DNA of 42,002 bases. Origin: a virus (lineage: Duplodnaviria; Heunggongvirae; Uroviricota; Caudoviricetes). Under the pieces are notes generated by a model that was not told where the DNA came from, made no database searches, and saw only the letters and a list, made by a program, of their open reading frames with translations. The stretch lies in the IMG/VR virus record IMGVR_UViG_2563366918_000005; one strand, 5' to 3'. Numbering within the stretch: the stretch's first letter is position 1; every line of letters begins with the position of its first letter. The position numbers and the translations under genes are program-made. Shown piece after piece: positions 1,105 to 36,568 of this stretch.

Positions 1105-1825
1105 AGTATAATAAATATCCTCCGGCATAGCCGGAGGTTTTTCAAATGCGCCTATAAGGCTCTCTTACCAGCCGCGCCCTAACAGGCGCACACGATCTGA
1201 CATTTGCATCCAACTTCGTTACTTACGGCCCGTAAACGGGCTGCCCGGATAGGGAATCGATAACTGCTCTCCCATTTTATCCTCTTCAAGCTGGTGCTTT
1301 ATGTAATCCTGTATCTTCGCCGTGTTCTTACCCACTGTATCGACGTAGTACCCTCTGCACCAGAACTCCCTGTTCCTGTATTTGAATTTCAAATCACCAA
1401 ACTGCTCGTAAAGCATCAGACTGCTTTTCCCTTTCAGATATCCCATAAACCCGGATACGCTCATTTTAGGCGGGATCTCCACAAGCATATGGATATGATC
1501 TGCACAGCATTCAGCTTCCAGAATCCGTACGCTTTTCCACTCACACAGCTTTCTCAAAATACTGCCTATTGCTCTACGCTTCTCTCTGTAGAACACCTGT
1601 CTTCGGTATTTTGGCGCAAAAACTATGTGATATTTACAGTTCCATCGGGTGTGCGCTAAGCTCTTTTCGTTCCCCATTGGGACCCCCTTTTGATTTCTTG
1701 TTTGACACTTGCAGTTGCCAGACCGCAAGGTGTTTTAACAAATCAAAAGGGGTTTTAATAACTGGCTCAAAGCTGAAAGCTTTCCGGAACCCCCAGCCTA
1801 GCTGGGGGTTTTCTGTGCACAAAAA
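1105..1825 (-). mobile_element. IS200 (IS200/IS605 family) insertion sequence; ends approximate
   Basis: Contains the Y1-transposase gene. Two subterminal 8-bp-stem/3-nt-loop hairpins show compensatory changes: 1119-1137 CCTCCGGC-ata-GCCGGAGG and 1790-1808 CCCCCAGC-cta-GCTGGGGG. A long stem (approx. 1682-1752, CCCCTTTTGATTT / AAATCAAAAGGGG) occludes the tnpA RBS, as known for IS200. The expected ~707-bp size fits. Exact termini not determinable by eye. Confidence 0.8.
1219..1677 (-). CDS. tnpA: IS200 transposase TnpA (Y1 HUH transposase)
   Basis: 152 aa from MGNEKSLAHTRWNCKYHIVFAPKYRR. HUH motif (ADHIHMLV) and C-terminal YIKHQ. The longer 169-aa ORF start (1728) is rejected because canonical IS200 TnpA starts at MG(D/N)EKSLAHTRW. 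Confidence 0.93.
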   Translation of the reverse strand: MGNEKSLAHTRWNCKYHIVFAPKYRRQVFYREKRRAIGSILRKLCEWKSVRILEAECCADHIHMLVEIPPKMSVSGFMGYLKGKSSLMLYEQFGDLKFKYRNREFWCRGYYVDTVGKNTAKIQDYIKHQLEEDKMGEQLSIPYPGSPFTGRK

Positions 1826-6579: not shown

Positions 6580-6682
6580 GTTAAATCTCCAGATAGTCGC
6601 AGCACCCGTTGCGCCGCATATCTGGTTATTCTATTACCTGAAAAACCATATATGTATAGAAAGACTATAAATACCAATAGAT

Positions 6683-6699
6683 ATTACCTTTATGGTAAT
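6683..6699. promoter_or_regulatory. 17-bp palindromic operator ATTACCTTTATGGTAAT (perfect)
   Basis: Member of the WTTACC-N5-GGTAAW family. Lies in the divergent region between tailspike (-) and the SOS-boxed gene (+). Half-site ATTACC also at 6633. Confidence 0.7.
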
Positions 6700-6716
6700 T
6701 TGCAAAACGTGCTGGA

Positions 6717-6753
6717 TAGCAAACAAATTATTTGATACTGTATAAATATACAG
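6717..6753 (+). promoter_or_regulatory. SOS-regulated promoter: LexA box TACTGTATAAATATACAGTT (core CTGT-N8-ACAG 6738-6753) overlapping a TATAAAT -10
   Basis: Matches the consensus TACTGTATATATATACAGTA at 18/20 positions. -10 TATAAAT at 6741-6747, SD GGAG at 6763-6766, ATG at 6775. Confidence 0.85.
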
Positions 6754-6774
6754 TTATTGCATGGAGAAGATAAG

Positions 6775-7032
6775 ATGCAGCGGTATCACTATCCACTGGA
6801 AGACGGATTTACCGAAAGGATTCACACGCCGGGAGGCGTCAGGTCACTGGTGGAGGGATCGCACTTGATGAAATTACTCCGGGATCTCGATAAGGATGGA
6901 TTTAATGTCGATGGCCCACTTGCCGAACTGACTGCACTGATTAACTACGTCACCAGCTCACAGATGTCTATGCGGGATCTGCAAACACATCTCGACTATT
7001 GTGCCGAACAATTACGAAAACAAACCAGATAA
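6775..7032 (+). CDS. small LexA-controlled protein, candidate antirepressor (paralog of the Bro-N protein C-terminus)
   Basis: 85 aa from MQRYHY (GGAG 8 nt upstream; the TTG at 6757 is less likely). Residues HTPGGVRSLVEGSHLMKLLRDLDKDGFNVDGPLAELT...MRDLQTHLDY align with HSPSGVLGLTENSLLMNLLNQLQEDGHDVSGAAAELT...LRDIQTHAEY of the 7347-8039 product. Confidence 0.7.
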   Translation: MQRYHYPLEDGFTERIHTPGGVRSLVEGSHLMKLLRDLDKDGFNVDGPLAELTALINYVTSSQMSMRDLQTHLDYCAEQLRKQTR

Positions 7033-7062
7033 GGTTTGCAATTACCAAGTGGAGTGCTTATA

Positions 7063-7079
7063 TTTACCTTTGAGGTAAA
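7063..7079. promoter_or_regulatory. 17-bp palindromic operator TTTACCTTTGAGGTAAA
   Basis: Same family. Nested between the 7-bp inverted repeats GGAGTGC (7051-7057) and GCACTCC (7088-7094). A weaker neighbour lies at 7041-7057. Confidence 0.6.
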
Positions 7080-7172
7080 TTTACATCGCACTCCTCTTGT
7101 GCCATAGTAATCGGGCACTGGCAAAATCCAGTGCCGGGATTGGTCTCCCGGATTACTACAGAGGCACATATG

Positions 7173-7192
7173 CCGCATAAGCGGTTTTTTTT
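7173..7192 (+). terminator. probable rho-independent terminator (short stem, U8 tail)
   Basis: CCGC-ataa-GCGG followed by TTTTTTTT (7185-7192). The stem is only 4 bp, so strength is uncertain. Confidence 0.45.
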
Positions 7193-7346
7193 ATGTGTAA
7201 AGCGCACCTATTCTATGGTGGGCTGTGTGGGGGCACCGAAAGGTGCGCCGGGTTCCTTTGTAGCCGGTAAGACCAACTCTGCACAGTTCACCACCATCTG
7301 ATTGGTCTCAGCGGTGGTGATTAACCTAACTACAAAGGTGATCGCC

Positions 7347-8039
7347 ATGAATACCAAACCTTCCATCTTTTCCTTTGAGTCATCCTGCCAGATCCGTATG
7401 TTCATGATTGACGGAGAACCTTGGTTTGTCACCAAAGATGTGTGCAATGCTTTGAATATTGATGTTACACAAGCGAGAAAACTTGATAAAAAAGGCTGGA
7501 ACAAAAAGGGGCTGTATTCAATACAGACCCCTGGTGGAATACAAGAACTATCCATCGTTTCAGAATCAGGTCTCTACATCCTTATTCTGCGTTGCAAAGA
7601 GGCAATGACTGAGGGAACGAGAGCATTCAGATTTCTTGAATGGGTTACAGGCGAGGTTCTTCCTCAGATCCGCCGCACCGGAAGTTACATTAAAAACTCG
7701 CTACCGCAGGAAGAACGCATAAAGATGGTTGCCGACCAGGTAGCCAACGCCACGGCGTCAGCAGTAATGCAGGCGATGAAGATAGAGAACAAAACCTACA
7801 ACGCCCCGCTGAAGCCCGGCTACCGCAGCCTGATTCATTCCCCGTCTGGTGTTCTCGGCCTGACGGAGAACTCACTGCTGATGAATCTGCTGAACCAGTT
7901 ACAGGAAGACGGGCACGACGTATCGGGCGCGGCGGCGGAGCTGACCACCATGTTCTGCTACATCGTCGGTGTGAGCAAATGCCTGCGTGATATCCAGACG
8001 CACGCGGAGTACATCAACGACAAAGCAGGGTTCTTCTGA
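7347..8039 (+). CDS. Bro-N domain antirepressor-like protein
   Basis: 230 aa from MNTKPSIFSFES (SD AAGGTGA). N-terminal Bro-N signature (IRMFMIDGEPWFVTKDVCNALNI ... ESGLYILILR ... FLEWVTGEVLPQIRRTGSY). C-terminal ~70 aa paralogous to the 6775-7032 product. Confidence 0.8.
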   Translation: MNTKPSIFSFESSCQIRMFMIDGEPWFVTKDVCNALNIDVTQARKLDKKGWNKKGLYSIQTPGGIQELSIVSESGLYILILRCKEAMTEGTRAFRFLEWVTGEVLPQIRRTGSYIKNSLPQEERIKMVADQVANATASAVMQAMKIENKTYNAPLKPGYRSLIHSPSGVLGLTENSLLMNLLNQLQEDGHDVSGAAAELTTMFCYIVGVSKCLRDIQTHAEYINDKAGFF

Positions 8040-8248: not shown

Positions 8249-8788
8249 GTGTTAAGTGAAGAAATGCAATTTGCCATGGCTGTGGCTCAAATCGTAAGTG
8301 CAGTCGCGGTTTCGCTTGGCTTGTTCATAGCTATCGCTACTATTATTTATAATGTAAATACAGCGAGAAAAGTACACACTTCAGTATTCCTTGGTGAAAG
8401 CAGGTTTGATGTAGATTATAAGAAAGGCCTATCTACTATGCGCCGCATTCACGAATCGAACAAATCATTCCGCTCTTATATGTATCCAAGCAATGGGCAG
8501 GCTGATCTTACGGATGAAGAAAAGACAGAGAAGAGAGAAATAATTTACTGTCTAGGTTTCTACGAACGCATGGCTGTGAGCGTGAAGCGGAAAACTTATG
8601 ATGAGACCATGATTAAGGAAGTATTTTACAGCTCCGTTGTAAATAACTATCAGATTGCGCTACCTCTTATACAAGCCATTAGAGAAAAAGAAAACATAAA
8701 CACATATTTTAAAGAATATGAATGGTTGGCCACACGATGGAAGGATTGCCCATTGAAGGATAAATCCCCGTGGTACAAGTTTTGGTAA
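8249..8788 (+). CDS. N-terminally membrane-anchored moron protein (resembles DUF4760-type proteins; from memory)
   Basis: 179 aa with GTG start and GGAG 7 nt upstream. Single TM helix AVAVSLGLFIAIATIIYNV, then a soluble domain. AT-rich. Flanked by its own terminators (8208-8230, 8789-8810). Confidence 0.7.
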   Translation: MLSEEMQFAMAVAQIVSAVAVSLGLFIAIATIIYNVNTARKVHTSVFLGESRFDVDYKKGLSTMRRIHESNKSFRSYMYPSNGQADLTDEEKTEKREIIYCLGFYERMAVSVKRKTYDETMIKEVFYSSVVNNYQIALPLIQAIREKENINTYFKEYEWLATRWKDCPLKDKSPWYKFW

Positions 8789-34309: not shown

Positions 34310-35097
34310 AAGAAATCCTCCCATGCTTCAGGGCTGTTCCAGTGCGGAACGTTGTTATCAGGTAATGTTGATTGCTTCTGTCTGCTAATCTGCAGCCGCC
34401 TTGCCAGCTTCTGCTCCCACTGCGCCTGATGGTATGCCTTACCCTCAGCCATCCAGTAAATTCTGAACTCTGCAAGTTCCTGTGCCGTTGGCAGACTGTC
34501 CAGGTAGATCCCCTGCAATGAGCTTTTCCGAAGAAAGTCATCTGATGGTTGCCATTGTTCATGCATGACAAATTTGCCTAATTGCCCTGGCCCACCAGGA
34601 GGAACAAAGTTATTCATCACGGCGTTGTTTGCGCCGGGGTCATGAGGCACAGAATCCCCGCTTTTTGTCCTGCTCTCCCTCTCTTGGTTAAATGACTGGT
34701 TATATGACTGGTTCTGGATCCCGTTTTTGGGATCATTCAACATCCCGTTTTTGGGTATATTCCCGTTTTCGGTAACATTACCGTTTTCGGGTTCATTACC
34801 CCCTTCCCGGTTGCCTTTAATGTTCCCGTTTTTGGTTATATTAAGAGAGAAAACCCGCACTCTTTTCGTCGCTCCCTTTCTCTCTCCGGTATCTGAAATA
34901 AGCCCCATTTTCATGAGCGATATAAGCCCGGCCTGCACGGTTTTTTTATTCAGGCAAGTGTCTTTAACGAGGCGTTCTATGCTGGGGTAGCAGAGGTTAT
35001 ATTCATCGGCTCTGTCAGCCATCGAGAGCAGTATGAGCTTTAATGACGAGCTACCTGGATCTGTCTCCCAGGCCCAATCTGTTGCATGTCTGCTCAT
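34306..35097 (-). CDS. replication initiator (lambda O-like role; winged-helix N-terminus, iteron-encoding middle)
   Basis: 263 aa. N-terminal HTH-like LKLILLSMADRADEYNLCYPSIERLVKDTCLNKKTVQAGLISL. Repeated NG/PKNG peptide encoded by the iterons. Immediately upstream of the P-like gene. Confidence 0.75.
   Translation of the reverse strand: MSRHATDWAWETDPGSSSLKLILLSMADRADEYNLCYPSIERLVKDTCLNKKTVQAGLISLMKMGLISDTGERKGATKRVRVFSLNITKNGNIKGNREGGNEPENGNVTENGNIPKNGMLNDPKNGIQNQSYNQSFNQERESRTKSGDSVPHDPGANNAVMNNFVPPGGPGQLGKFVMHEQWQPSDDFLRKSSLQGIYLDSLPTAQELAEFRIYWMAEGKAYHQAQWEQKLARRLQISRQKQSTLPDNNVPHWNSPEAWEDFL
34719..34835. repeat. origin iterons: 5-6 copies of TCCCGTTTT(T/C)GG(G) at 18-24 bp spacing inside the initiator gene
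   Basis: Copies at 34719, 34743, 34761, 34779, (34805, degenerate) and 34824. Adjacent direct repeat ATGACTGGTT x2 (34692-34714). Confidence 0.75.
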
Positions 35098-35463: not shown

Positions 35464-35694
35464 TCATGAGTAGAAGAAGTATGCCAGTTCTGCTTTTGAG
35501 CGCAGCCATTGTCTTGTTTTACAGGCTTTAAAAAGCCCATTCATCAATACTTTACCTGGCATTTTGCGCTTACCTGTTAAGTGAGTCTGGATATAGTGAC
35601 TCGTCGTTCCGGCTTCCTGTGCGAAGGCTTCACGCTCATCCGGAGTAAGTGCAAGCCAGTGCTTTTTGAAATCGAAATGTCCGTTATCGCTCAT
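35464..35694 (-). CDS. Cro-like HTH regulator
   Basis: 76 aa. First gene of the leftward early operon, divergent from the repressor. HTH-like EAFAQEAGTTSHYIQTHLTG. Confidence 0.65.
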   Translation of the reverse strand: MSDNGHFDFKKHWLALTPDEREAFAQEAGTTSHYIQTHLTGKRKMPGKVLMNGLFKACKTRQWLRSKAELAYFFYS

Positions 35695-35729: not shown

Positions 35730-35794
35730 TTCACCCATAAGGTAACAAAAATCAAGGATAGTTACCTATGAGGTGCATTTACCTGTTGGGTAAT
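35730..35794. promoter_or_regulatory. immunity operator cluster: TTCACCCATAAGGTAAC (35730), GTTACCTATGAGGTGCA (35761), TTTACCTGTTGGGTAAT (35778)
   Basis: Three sites in the 154-bp divergent region. The last two abut directly. Candidate leftward promoter TTGATT-17-GAATAT overlaps the first site. Confidence 0.7.
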
Positions 35795-35848: not shown

Positions 35849-36433
35849 ATGAAAAGTATCCAGGACGTCCGCAGGCAAAATCTCAACGACTTGATCGACC
35901 GTGAATTCAATGGTGTTCAGACGCGGATGGCAGAAAAACTTGGAACTCAGGCAAATCTGGTAAACCGCTGGGCTCTTGGCAAGAAGGTTATCGGCGACCA
36001 GGTTGCACGAAAAATTGAAGCTGCCGCCAATAAACCCCGTAACTGGCTTGATATTGATCGCTCGCTTTCTCAGGAGGGTTTTCAGCCTGTCGGCCCGAGC
36101 GATATAGGTCAGCTGGCGGCTCACAACCTGGAACGCTGGATGAGCGAAAGCCGCGACCTTTCAACGCAGGGAAAACTACACCGCGCATCCGGCGTCGCCC
36201 AGGTGACAATCAGCCGCCTGTTAAACAATGAGGTCAGCGTTTCCATTTCCACCCTGGAGAATGTTGCATCCGCATTCGGGCGTCACGGCTATGAATTACT
36301 GATTCACCCGCACGACCCTGCGACCATCAACTATGATCGCTCGCGCTACGCATTGTTACCCGAAACCGAGAAAGCAAAGATCGAAAGTTACATTGAATTT
36401 GTCATCAACCAGAACGAAAAAAACAAACAATAA
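35849..36433 (+). CDS. prophage repressor with two tandem HTH (XRE-type) domains and no S24 peptidase domain
   Basis: 194 aa. HTH 1 is TRMAEKLGTQANLVNRWALG. HTH 2 is KLHRASGVAQVTISRLLNN. Only ~35 aa follow the second HTH. No SD before the ATG (possibly leaderless). Confidence 0.75.
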   Translation: MKSIQDVRRQNLNDLIDREFNGVQTRMAEKLGTQANLVNRWALGKKVIGDQVARKIEAAANKPRNWLDIDRSLSQEGFQPVGPSDIGQLAAHNLERWMSESRDLSTQGKLHRASGVAQVTISRLLNNEVSVSISTLENVASAFGRHGYELLIHPHDPATINYDRSRYALLPETEKAKIESYIEFVINQNEKNKQ

Positions 36434-36489: not shown

Positions 36490-36568
36490 ATTACCTAATG
36501 GGTAATTTTTTTAACTCATATCTATTGACATCAAACCAGATACGCATAATTATTACCTCAACGGTAAC
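36490..36568 (+). promoter_or_regulatory. rightward early promoter region: operator ATTACCTAATGGGTAAT (36490), -35 TTGACA (36525-36530), operator ATTACCTCAACGGTAAC (36552)
   Basis: Perfect -35. The -10 is ambiguous (TAATTA / AATTAT, 36547-36553). Operators flank the promoter. Confidence 0.6.

Follow-up and report, generated by a model that had tools for sequence, protein, structure and literature searches.

How would a prophage sense DNA damage in its host when its repressor carries no autocleavage domain? The question arises from a viral sequence of 42,002 nucleotides (IMG/VR virus record IMGVR_UViG_2563366918_000005), which was analysed as a whole and is called the window below. A LexA (SOS) box lies directly upstream of a gene for an 85-aa protein, and an earlier note on this DNA had proposed that the product is a LexA-repressed antirepressor acting on a non-cleavable repressor. 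Our analysis indicates, with a probability of about 0.9, that the locus serves a phiV10/epsilon15-type (Uetakevirus) prophage as its SOS sensor and is orthologous to the Rep-Ant switch of Salmonella phage SPC32H. The two genes are therefore called ant and rep here.

Identity and distribution of the prophage

The window is a Uetakevirus (phiV10/epsilon15-like) prophage. Its podophage relatives are phiV10, TL-2011b, vB_EcoP_ZX5 (ZX5) and EC.W1-9, and Tyrion, epsilon15 and SPC32H are more distant matches within Uetakevirus. The ant region was found in 531 of 5,426 complete E. coli genomes (~10%), where the gene is labelled 'hypothetical protein'. A single-protein locus search of the viral-contig collection gave 305 relatives, and the copies found were all 98-100% identical. 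Divergent loci were obtained through an alignment-based scan of a collection with one genome per species. The 88 related loci compared below consist of 80 viral contigs and 8 species genomes, the latter from Citrobacter, Erwinia, Superficieibacter, Pseudocitrobacter, Scandinavium, Klebsiella and Pseudescherichia.

LexA box upstream of ant

6736-6755 (no strand assigned): LexA (SOS) box TACTGTATAAATATACAGTT, unique in the window
6775-7032 (+): ant, 85-aa antirepressor, ortholog of SPC32H Ant by its match to PDB 5D50_E and 87% identity

The near-consensus SOS box that had been claimed is present at 6736-6755, where TACTGTATAAATATACAGTT agrees with the consensus TACTGTATATATATACAGTA at 18 of 20 positions, the mismatches being positions 10 and 20. 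The pattern CTGT-N8-ACAG occurs twice in the 42-kb window; in the second copy (21624) the spacer is rich in GC. All 20-mers of the two strands were scored with a heterology-index (HI) matrix built from 19 E. coli SOS boxes, chromosomal and plasmid, and the HI values are approximate. The index of the box, a check that the earlier note had proposed, is ~1.2, and the reference boxes span approximately 0.6-9.0 with the same matrix. The next best 20-mer in the window has an HI of 10.7, and the best 20-mer per shuffled window scored 6.8-10 in 20 shuffles. The LexA box is real and lies far beyond chance.

The box is located 19-22 nt 5' of the ATG in 87 of the 88 related loci, which come from about ten genera. 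Its HI is below 5 in 84 loci and 6.3-9.2 in three, all of them diverged species in which the left arm reads ATGT. It is destroyed in a single locus, where the upstream half was replaced by foreign DNA. In an alignment of the window with phiV10, EC.W1-9, Tyrion, SPC32H and SPC32N, the arms TACTGT and ATACAGT are invariant and the 8-nt spacer drifts; the exception is SPC32N, in which ACAG has become AAAG. The same pattern of conserved arms and variable spacer extends across nine genera. With its CTGT-N8-ACAG arms, AT-rich spacer and an HI in the reference range, the site at 6736-6755 has the appearance of an operator of the E. coli SOS regulon.

The ORF runs from the ATG at 6775 to the TAA at 7030-7032, and GGAG at 6763-6766 precedes the ATG by 8 nt. 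The 85-aa ORF with its Shine-Dalgarno sequence thus stands as first described; its distance from the box is 19 nt, not 22.

Promoter of ant

6712-6718 (+): candidate -35 element of the ant promoter, CTGGATA; CTGGA is invariant in nine genera and its flanks vary
6733-6741 (+): candidate extended -10 element, TG-a-TACTGT, which shares bases with the left arm of the LexA box; every relative has the same TG and TA

Two promoter-like elements are kept across nine genera, CTGGA(T/A)A (6712-6718) and TG-n-TAC(T)TGT (6733-6741), and 17 nt separate CTGGATA from TACTGT. Since these are the conserved elements, the left arm of the LexA box probably serves as the -10 itself. Phage 186 is arranged likewise at its annotated p95 promoter, where the -10, TACTGT, falls within the LexA site and is preceded by TG. 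The TATAAAT that had been taken for the -10 varies among the relatives and hence was not adopted. An alternative promoter, TTGCAA (6700-6705)-17-ACAAAT, was rejected, as it is conserved in the E. coli and Salmonella branch only. With the elements placed in this way, LexA bound to the box would occlude the predicted -10 and start site of ant.

Ant and Rep

35849-36433 (+): rep, 194-aa two-domain HTH repressor, ortholog of SPC32H Rep by its match to PDB 5D50_A; no S24 module

The sole PDB match of Ant in a phmmer search was 5D50_E, 'Anti-repressor protein' (E 3.5e-46, residues 2-84), and tblastn showed 87% identity to the SPC32H gene annotated 'ant: anti-repressor protein' (KC911856). Ant also matches phrog_450. 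No model in Pfam, NCBIfam or PADLOC matched Ant, and Pfam gave no DinI domain; a search of PADLOC for defence systems gave no match for Ant, the Bro-N protein described below or the DUF4760 protein. The family is small. When 1.84 billion cluster representatives were searched in full with a profile, 59 relatives emerged, counted as 50%-clustering representatives, while a word-indexed protein search yields only relatives of at least 67% identity. Most of the relatives are 80-95 aa long, and a minority form the C-terminal part of longer proteins with an N-terminal AntA, Bro-N, Rha or ORF6N domain. The small Ant is therefore to be seen as a free-standing copy of the C-terminal module that classical large phage antirepressors carry.

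Rep matched the other partner in the same PDB entry, 5D50_A 'Repressor' (E 4e-42, residues 1-190). The entry 5D50 is the solved Rep-Ant complex, and its chains match both proteins of the window. The C-terminal half of Rep matches 5D4Z and aligns with the SPC32H Rep(92-198) domain. Rep is 42% identical to SPC32H Rep from end to end and 100% identical to the repressors of phiV10 and ZX5. Residues 106-147 match HTH_3 and residues 21-61 weakly match an HTH; Pfam and NCBIfam gave HTH families only, with no match to Peptidase_S24. The two HTH domains and the missing S24 module agree with the layout proposed earlier, in which ~35 residues followed the HTH domains; we count about 47 after the second one. 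Rep probably does not belong to the self-cleaving repressors of the lambda CI/LexA type, which are defined by a C-terminal S24 domain with a Ser-Lys dyad.

The Rep proteins of the window and SPC32H have a well-conserved N-terminal DNA-binding region, in agreement with the operator motif common to both. As Rep retains 42% identity to its SPC32H counterpart and Ant 87%, binding between the Ant and Rep of the window is assumed.

Comparison with SPC32H and SPC32N

The genomes of SPC32H and SPC32N differ at exactly two bases. One difference (19960) breaks the CTGT arm of the LexA box, and the other (20147) lies in the tailspike gene. Kim and Ryu (2013) reportedly found that Rep is not cleaved and that ant is repressed by LexA; the single-base change in the LexA site is said to make Ant constitutive in SPC32N.

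The window and SPC32H belong to the same genus, Uetakevirus. Their Ant proteins are of equal length besides being 87% identical, and their Rep proteins are collinear at 42% identity. In both, ant occupies the same place and is oriented away from the tailspike gene, the LexA box is equally far from the ATG and the two boxes align column for column, and TTACC-N5-GGTAA operators are present upstream of ant and at the early promoters. They differ in host, which is E. coli here, in the far greater divergence of Rep than of Ant, and in an isrK/C4 and Bro-N::Ant module that follows ant in the window and is absent from SPC32H. With a small Ant, a two-domain HTH Rep lacking S24 and a LexA box at the ant promoter, the locus can be assigned to the SPC32H type of Rep-Ant switch.

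Two papers describe how this type works. In several Salmonella prophages, including the SPC32H system, LexA self-cleavage leads to production of an antirepressor, and the repressor is bound rather than cleaved (PMC7380047). SPC32H Rep binds DNA as a tetramer, and an Ant tetramer binds two Rep dimers (PMC9638917).

Operators of the TTACC-N5-GGTAA family

6684-6698 (no strand assigned): operator TTACCTTTATGGTAA upstream of ant, with perfect palindromic arms of the TTACC-N5-GGTAA family
7064-7078 (no strand assigned): second operator copy TTACCTTTGAGGTAA, perfect, abutting the -35 of the isrK-type promoter; position invariant in six species
35464-35694 (-): cro-like gene, divergent from rep
35731-45, 35762-76 and 35779-93 (no strand assigned): three operators between rep and the cro-like gene, assigned by motif
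36491-505 and 36553-567 (no strand assigned): two operators at the early rightward promoter, flanking TTGACA-17-AATTAT (36525-36553)

Perfect matches to TTACC-N5-GGTAA number nine in the window, where 0.02 would be expected, and ten in SPC32H, where the expectation is 0.06. Those of SPC32H lie at equivalent intergenic places, and the perfect sites are almost all intergenic. Between rep and the cro-like gene, the operator at 35731-45 overlaps the -35 and spacer of a minus-strand promoter (35748-35720), and SPC32H has three operators in the same arrangement at 34390, 34407 and 34437. At the early rightward promoter, the first base of the operator at 36553-567 is also the last of the -10 hexamer, and the other operator lies 62 bp upstream. 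This geometry of the early-promoter sites is the one expected for operators of the primary repressor, and Rep is predicted to bind them.

The operator upstream of ant is found at -91 to -95 from the ATG, with zero or one mismatch, in 87 of the 88 loci; across nine genera, its arms are invariant and its spacer varies. It is centred ~57 bp 5' of the inferred start site of ant (~6748) and ~70 bp from a conserved candidate tailspike promoter, and it overlaps neither core promoter. The proposal of dual control of ant by LexA and a phage regulator therefore stands in part: the operator is real and conserved, and its control of ant is possible but unproven. Alternatively, it could belong to the divergent promoter of the tailspike gene.

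isrK/C4/Bro-N module next to ant

7080-7108 (+): candidate promoter TTTACA-17-(TG)CATAGT, hexamers invariant in six species, predicted start ~7115
7115-7191 (+): isrK-like sRNA (Rfam RF01394, 74.7 bits against a gathering threshold of 50), with the b1 target TTGGTCT at 7140-7146
7211-7298 (+): C4-type antisense RNA (Rfam RF01695, 78.6 bits against a gathering threshold of 45)
7302-7338 (+): C4 targets b2, TTGGTCT at 7302-7308, and a2, CTACAAAGG at 7330-7338, exact reverse complements of the loops
7347-8039 (+): Bro-N antirepressor of 230 aa (Bro-N PF02498, E 1.9e-13), whose C-terminal ~80 aa are an Ant domain

A second antirepressor gene lies immediately downstream of ant and appears to be controlled by RNA. 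The promoter at 7080-7108 predicts a start exactly at the first position of the isrK model; a promoter-like match at 7036-7064 was set aside in its favour, as the hexamers at 7080-7108 stay invariant in six species. The isrK-like sRNA ends with a terminator-like site (7172-7185) followed by a T run, and its fold has a z-score of -3.9. The two loops of the C4-type RNA are CCUUUGUAG (7255-7263) and AGACCAA (7270-7276). UUGGUCU at 7140 and 7302 is in both places the exact complement of the loop AGACCAA. The a2 target, CUACAAAGG as RNA (7330-7338), is the complement of the loop CCUUUGUAG and covers the Shine-Dalgarno sequence of the Bro-N gene.

Loops and targets co-vary across species. One loop pairs with its target as AGACCAA/TTGGTCT, ACGCCAA/TTGGCGT or GTCTCAA/TTGAGAC, and the other as CCTTTGTAG/CTACAAAGG, TCCTTTTAG/CTAAAAGGA or CCACTTAG/CTAAGTGG. 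Compensatory changes of this kind were found in five species, namely C. werkmanii, Erwinia dacicola, Superficieibacter, Scandinavium and K. pneumoniae. The a1/b1 model RF03163 scored 39.9, below its gathering threshold of 46.7. When the whole C4 RNA was paired with its flanks by duplexfold, 50 of 300 and 16 of 300 shuffles were as good; duplexfold thus failed to discriminate and was dropped as evidence, and the exact complements and the covariation were used.

Over 74 aa, the C-terminus of the Bro-N protein shows 43% identity to Ant (E 9e-17). The protein has matches to phrog_130 'anti-repressor Ant' and to phrog_450, and its identity to ORF4 of ZX5 is 80%. Overexpression of ORF4 lowered prophage titres from 1e9 to 1e6 (~1000-fold) and repressor mRNA by 75%, and mitomycin C induced lysogens of ZX5, whose Rep is identical to that of the window, 100-fold (PMC9782041). 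The available text of that study treats ORF4 as the phage antirepressor and does not mention the small gene (PMC9782041).

The isrK/C4/Bro-N module is found beside ant in 76 of the 88 loci and is absent from SPC32H and epsilon15. A C4 fold with two loops, repeated targets and a covered ribosome-binding site suggests that it is of the C4/immI type. Its closest described relatives are P1/P7 immI (c4-icd-ant) and Gifsy-1 isrK-orf45-anrP (PMC4825925), with which it has in common the order of a promoter, an isrK/a1b1 segment with terminator, a C4-type RNA, a2b2 over a ribosome-binding site and a Bro-N-type antirepressor. In the Gifsy-1 locus, IsrK, the stable RNA STnc1160 and AnrP follow each other in this order (PMC4825925). 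The module of the window differs from both in having no icd-like gene, in an a2 that covers the Shine-Dalgarno sequence of the antirepressor itself, in an SPC32H-type Ant domain at the C-terminus of the antirepressor, and in a Rep-type operator that abuts the promoter.

Discussion

The mechanism that we propose for this prophage is as follows. In the lysogen, host LexA would sit on the box at 6736-6755, over the -10 and start site of ant, and keep the gene silent, while a Rep tetramer lacking an autocleavage domain would occupy the TTACC-N5-GGTAA operators at the early promoters. Upon DNA damage, activated RecA would promote the self-cleavage of LexA, and ant would be transcribed. The 85-aa Ant would then bind Rep, which would leave its operators and allow the lytic programme to start. 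The core of the earlier proposal, a LexA-repressed antirepressor acting against a non-cleavable repressor, is supported by the orthology of Ant and Rep with the SPC32H proteins, the conservation of the box in 87 of 88 loci and the SPC32N mutation. We infer that the LexA control, the Ant-Rep binding and the non-cleavage of SPC32H hold in the E. coli phage too. The LexA-gated Ant mechanism is already known for the genus (Kim & Ryu 2013; Kim et al. 2016), and the window adds nothing new to it, because the SPC32H switch has been shown genetically and structurally in the same genus.

Other explanations of the locus were weighed against this one. It is hardly conceivable that the match to the LexA box arose by chance as an AT-rich palindrome and regulates nothing. 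Its setting in AT-rich intergenic DNA speaks for this reading, but an HI of ~1.2 compares with 6.8 for the best of 20 shuffles (on the approximate matrix), the arms are invariant around a drifting 8-nt spacer, and the position relative to the ATG is fixed in 87 of 88 loci. Nor is induction likely to proceed through RecA-stimulated self-cleavage or other proteolysis of Rep, with the LexA-controlled gene playing another role, and we regard this as highly improbable. Lambda and P22 offer a general precedent for it, and nothing in the sequence points to it; Rep has no Peptidase_S24 in Pfam or NCBIfam, and the C-terminal half consists of another HTH-type domain, a homologue of the tetramerisation domain, Rep(92-198), of SPC32H. 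The literature on the SPC32H system gives antirepression instead (PMC7380047, PMC9638917).

The remaining alternatives concern how ant is controlled and which protein acts on Rep. LexA and Rep may jointly control ant, Rep at 6684-6698 adding repression or tuning, possibly by looping to 7064-7078; we consider this possible but doubtful. The site belongs to the operator family of the early promoters, its distance from ant is fixed in 87 of 88 loci from about ten genera, and beyond ant, at a distance of 380 bp, there is a second perfect operator. Looping would be allowed by a Rep tetramer with two DNA-binding dimers, as described for SPC32H Rep (PMC9638917). However, the site lies ~57 bp from the inferred start, outside the core promoter, unlike the early-promoter sites. 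The LexA-box change of SPC32N, which reportedly gives constitutive Ant, also suggests that the operator alone is insufficient to silence ant and that losing LexA binding suffices to deregulate the gene. It is improbable, though less so than cleavage of Rep, that the E. coli lineage relies mainly on the Bro-N protein with its Ant-like C-terminus (7347-8039) for induction and that the small Ant is auxiliary or redundant. The protein carries an Ant domain, its module is present in 76 of 88 loci, and the 80%-identical ORF4 of ZX5 affects titres and repressor mRNA when overexpressed (PMC9782041). Its gene, on the other hand, has no LexA box in the HI scan of the window, and a co-varying C4-type RNA targets its ribosome-binding site; in P1, C4 keeps ant off in lysogens. 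Furthermore, SPC32H and epsilon15 lack the gene and yet keep the LexA-ant module; the small ant and its box form the conserved core. The LexA-gated Ant is thus preferred as the inducer, and the neighbouring second antirepressor, which ends in a domain of the same kind, might contribute to this role or assume it.

A tentative extension of the LexA-gated switch, which we hold to be rather less than an even chance, is that the E. coli/Citrobacter/Klebsiella branch has a two-stage antirepressor cascade in which one Rep-binding domain is used twice, by Ant as the trigger and by Bro-N::Ant as the second stage. Ant would then be the LexA-gated trigger, and Bro-N::Ant would be held off by the C4-type RNA, with a Rep-type operator at its promoter. 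Bro-N::Ant could act as a latch that makes induction irreversible after Rep falls, or serve anti-immunity on superinfection. Through the operators at 6684 and 7064, both stages could be made to depend on Rep occupancy, for instance by looping of the Rep tetramer or by Rep-stimulated synthesis of the isrK/C4 RNA in the lysogen. As far as we could find, the tandem of a LexA-gated Ant and an antisense-RNA-gated Ant-domain fusion is apparently undescribed for the genus. It would lend itself, as a compact system, to the question of why one phage retains a repressor-binding domain in two copies that are wired differently.

The practical value of the assignment lies in annotation, ant being unlabelled in about a tenth of E. 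coli genomes. The small LexA-gated Ant is the likely SOS induction route of very common prophages, for example under DNA-damaging antibiotics. The ZX5 study is the one experimental paper on an E. coli member, and in its available text the Bro-N protein alone was tested as antirepressor (PMC9782041).

Other LexA-controlled antirepressors provide functional analogies. Coliphage 186 Tum, N15 AntC and the Gifsy prophages had been cited as precedents; they hold as analogies of function but not as protein relatives, and the correct reference is SPC32H Ant. Tum of phage 186 is likewise a LexA-repressed antirepressor acting on a non-cleavable repressor, and the 186 LexA box TACTGTATGTTTATACAGTA is almost identical to that of SPC32H. 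Tum differs in having 146 aa with a DinI-like half, whereas Ant is unrelated in sequence and has no DinI domain, and the repressor families differ. Homology between Ant and Tum was rejected, as BLASTP of Ant against 186 Tum gave 17 bits (E 0.04 for a single comparison). Ant therefore appears to fall outside the Tum/DinI-type LexA-controlled antirepressors of phage 186, Fels-2 and PSP3.

GfoA, GftA and GfhA of Gifsy-1/-2/-3 (PMC3121763) and AntC of N15 are small, directly repressed by LexA and encoded outside the immunity region. Their targets are short non-cleavable repressors, in keeping with the logic proposed for Ant (PMC3121763). The protein families and the operon structure are different, with dinI first in the Gifsy operon. 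The Gifsy repressors are single-domain proteins of ~136 aa that resemble the CI N-terminal domain, whereas the Rep of the window has two HTH-type domains; SPC32H Rep, unlike the single-domain Gifsy repressors, acts as a tetramer.

Second antirepressor module downstream of ant

A second antirepressor module is located immediately 3' of ant, the gene for the 85-aa antirepressor, and spans 7064-8039 of the window. A perfect Rep-type operator, the sequence type associated with the phage repressor, forms its first element and an invariant promoter is also part of it; the other elements are as follows.

7115-7191: isrK-like sRNA
7211-7298: C4-type antisense RNA
7347-8039: Bro-N protein gene

One loop of the C4 RNA in the window is the exact complement of the Shine-Dalgarno sequence of the Bro-N gene, and in five other species the loops and their targets co-vary. 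The module was found in 76 of the 88 related loci and is lacking in both SPC32H and epsilon15. Two ORFs have been called over the C4 RNA: a 56-aa ORF in the window (7131-7301) and an ORF of vB_EcoP_ZX5 (1360-1473 of locus L096) annotated as an 'ash family protein'. They probably result from mis-calling across the gene for this RNA, or else correspond to orf45 of Gifsy-1.

The C-terminus of the Bro-N protein (encoded at 7785-8036) matches Ant (6775-7029). The 85-aa Ant is a free-standing copy of a C-terminal domain that in other proteins follows an AntA, Bro-N, Rha or ORF6N domain in the same chain; the proteins cited for this comparison are P0122, P0124, P0132 and P0175. With 59 representatives in 1.84 billion clusters, the family as a whole is small, and no model of it was found in Pfam, NCBIfam or PADLOC.

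Variation of the LexA box

The LexA boxes were compared by an approximate heterology index (HI), in which lower values are closer to the consensus. In one of the 88 loci, L059 (IMGVR_UViG_2563366870_000004), all sequence 5' of the box centre has been substituted by unrelated DNA, about 20-130 nt upstream of ant, and the best HI upstream of the gene is 17.7. This locus is a natural variant without box and operator, and the replacement is possibly an insertion or a recombination breakpoint. The most diverged relatives, from Superficieibacter, K. pneumoniae and Pseudescherichia (L091, L094 and L095), have ATGT instead of CTGT as the left box arm, plus one extra base, with approximate HI values of 6.3-9.2. 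Their boxes may be weaker LexA sites, in which case leakier or earlier induction could follow.

Dispersed operators and neighboring features

TTACC-N5-GGTAA operators are located 5' of many transcription units genome-wide, and not solely in the immunity region.

25637
26254
29933/29951
33410/33472
35394
35731-35793
36491/36553

The spacing is exactly 62 bp in two pairs. SPC32H shows the same pattern, including sites 5' of its terminase, portal, lysis and integrase genes, and the scattered sites are similar to the dispersed operators of P1 C1.

Three further features were noted.

6628-6656: conserved block, plus strand ATTCTATTACC ... TATATG-AT, read as a candidate promoter on the minus strand
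8249-8788: DUF4760 protein (E 8e-31), encoded after the Bro-N gene and in the same orientation
1687-1810, minus strand: strong match to STnc490, an Hfq-binding sRNA (Rfam, 146 bits vs a gathering score of 56)

On the minus strand, the 6628-6656 block reads TTCATA-17-TAGAAT in most species and is a candidate dedicated promoter of the tailspike gene; the inverted ant block sits between this gene and the remaining structural genes. The DUF4760 protein, which has a hydrophobic N-terminal stretch and matches neither PADLOC nor NCBIfam models, may be a moron. The STnc490 match, close to the window's left end, partially overlaps an ORF at 1219-1728.
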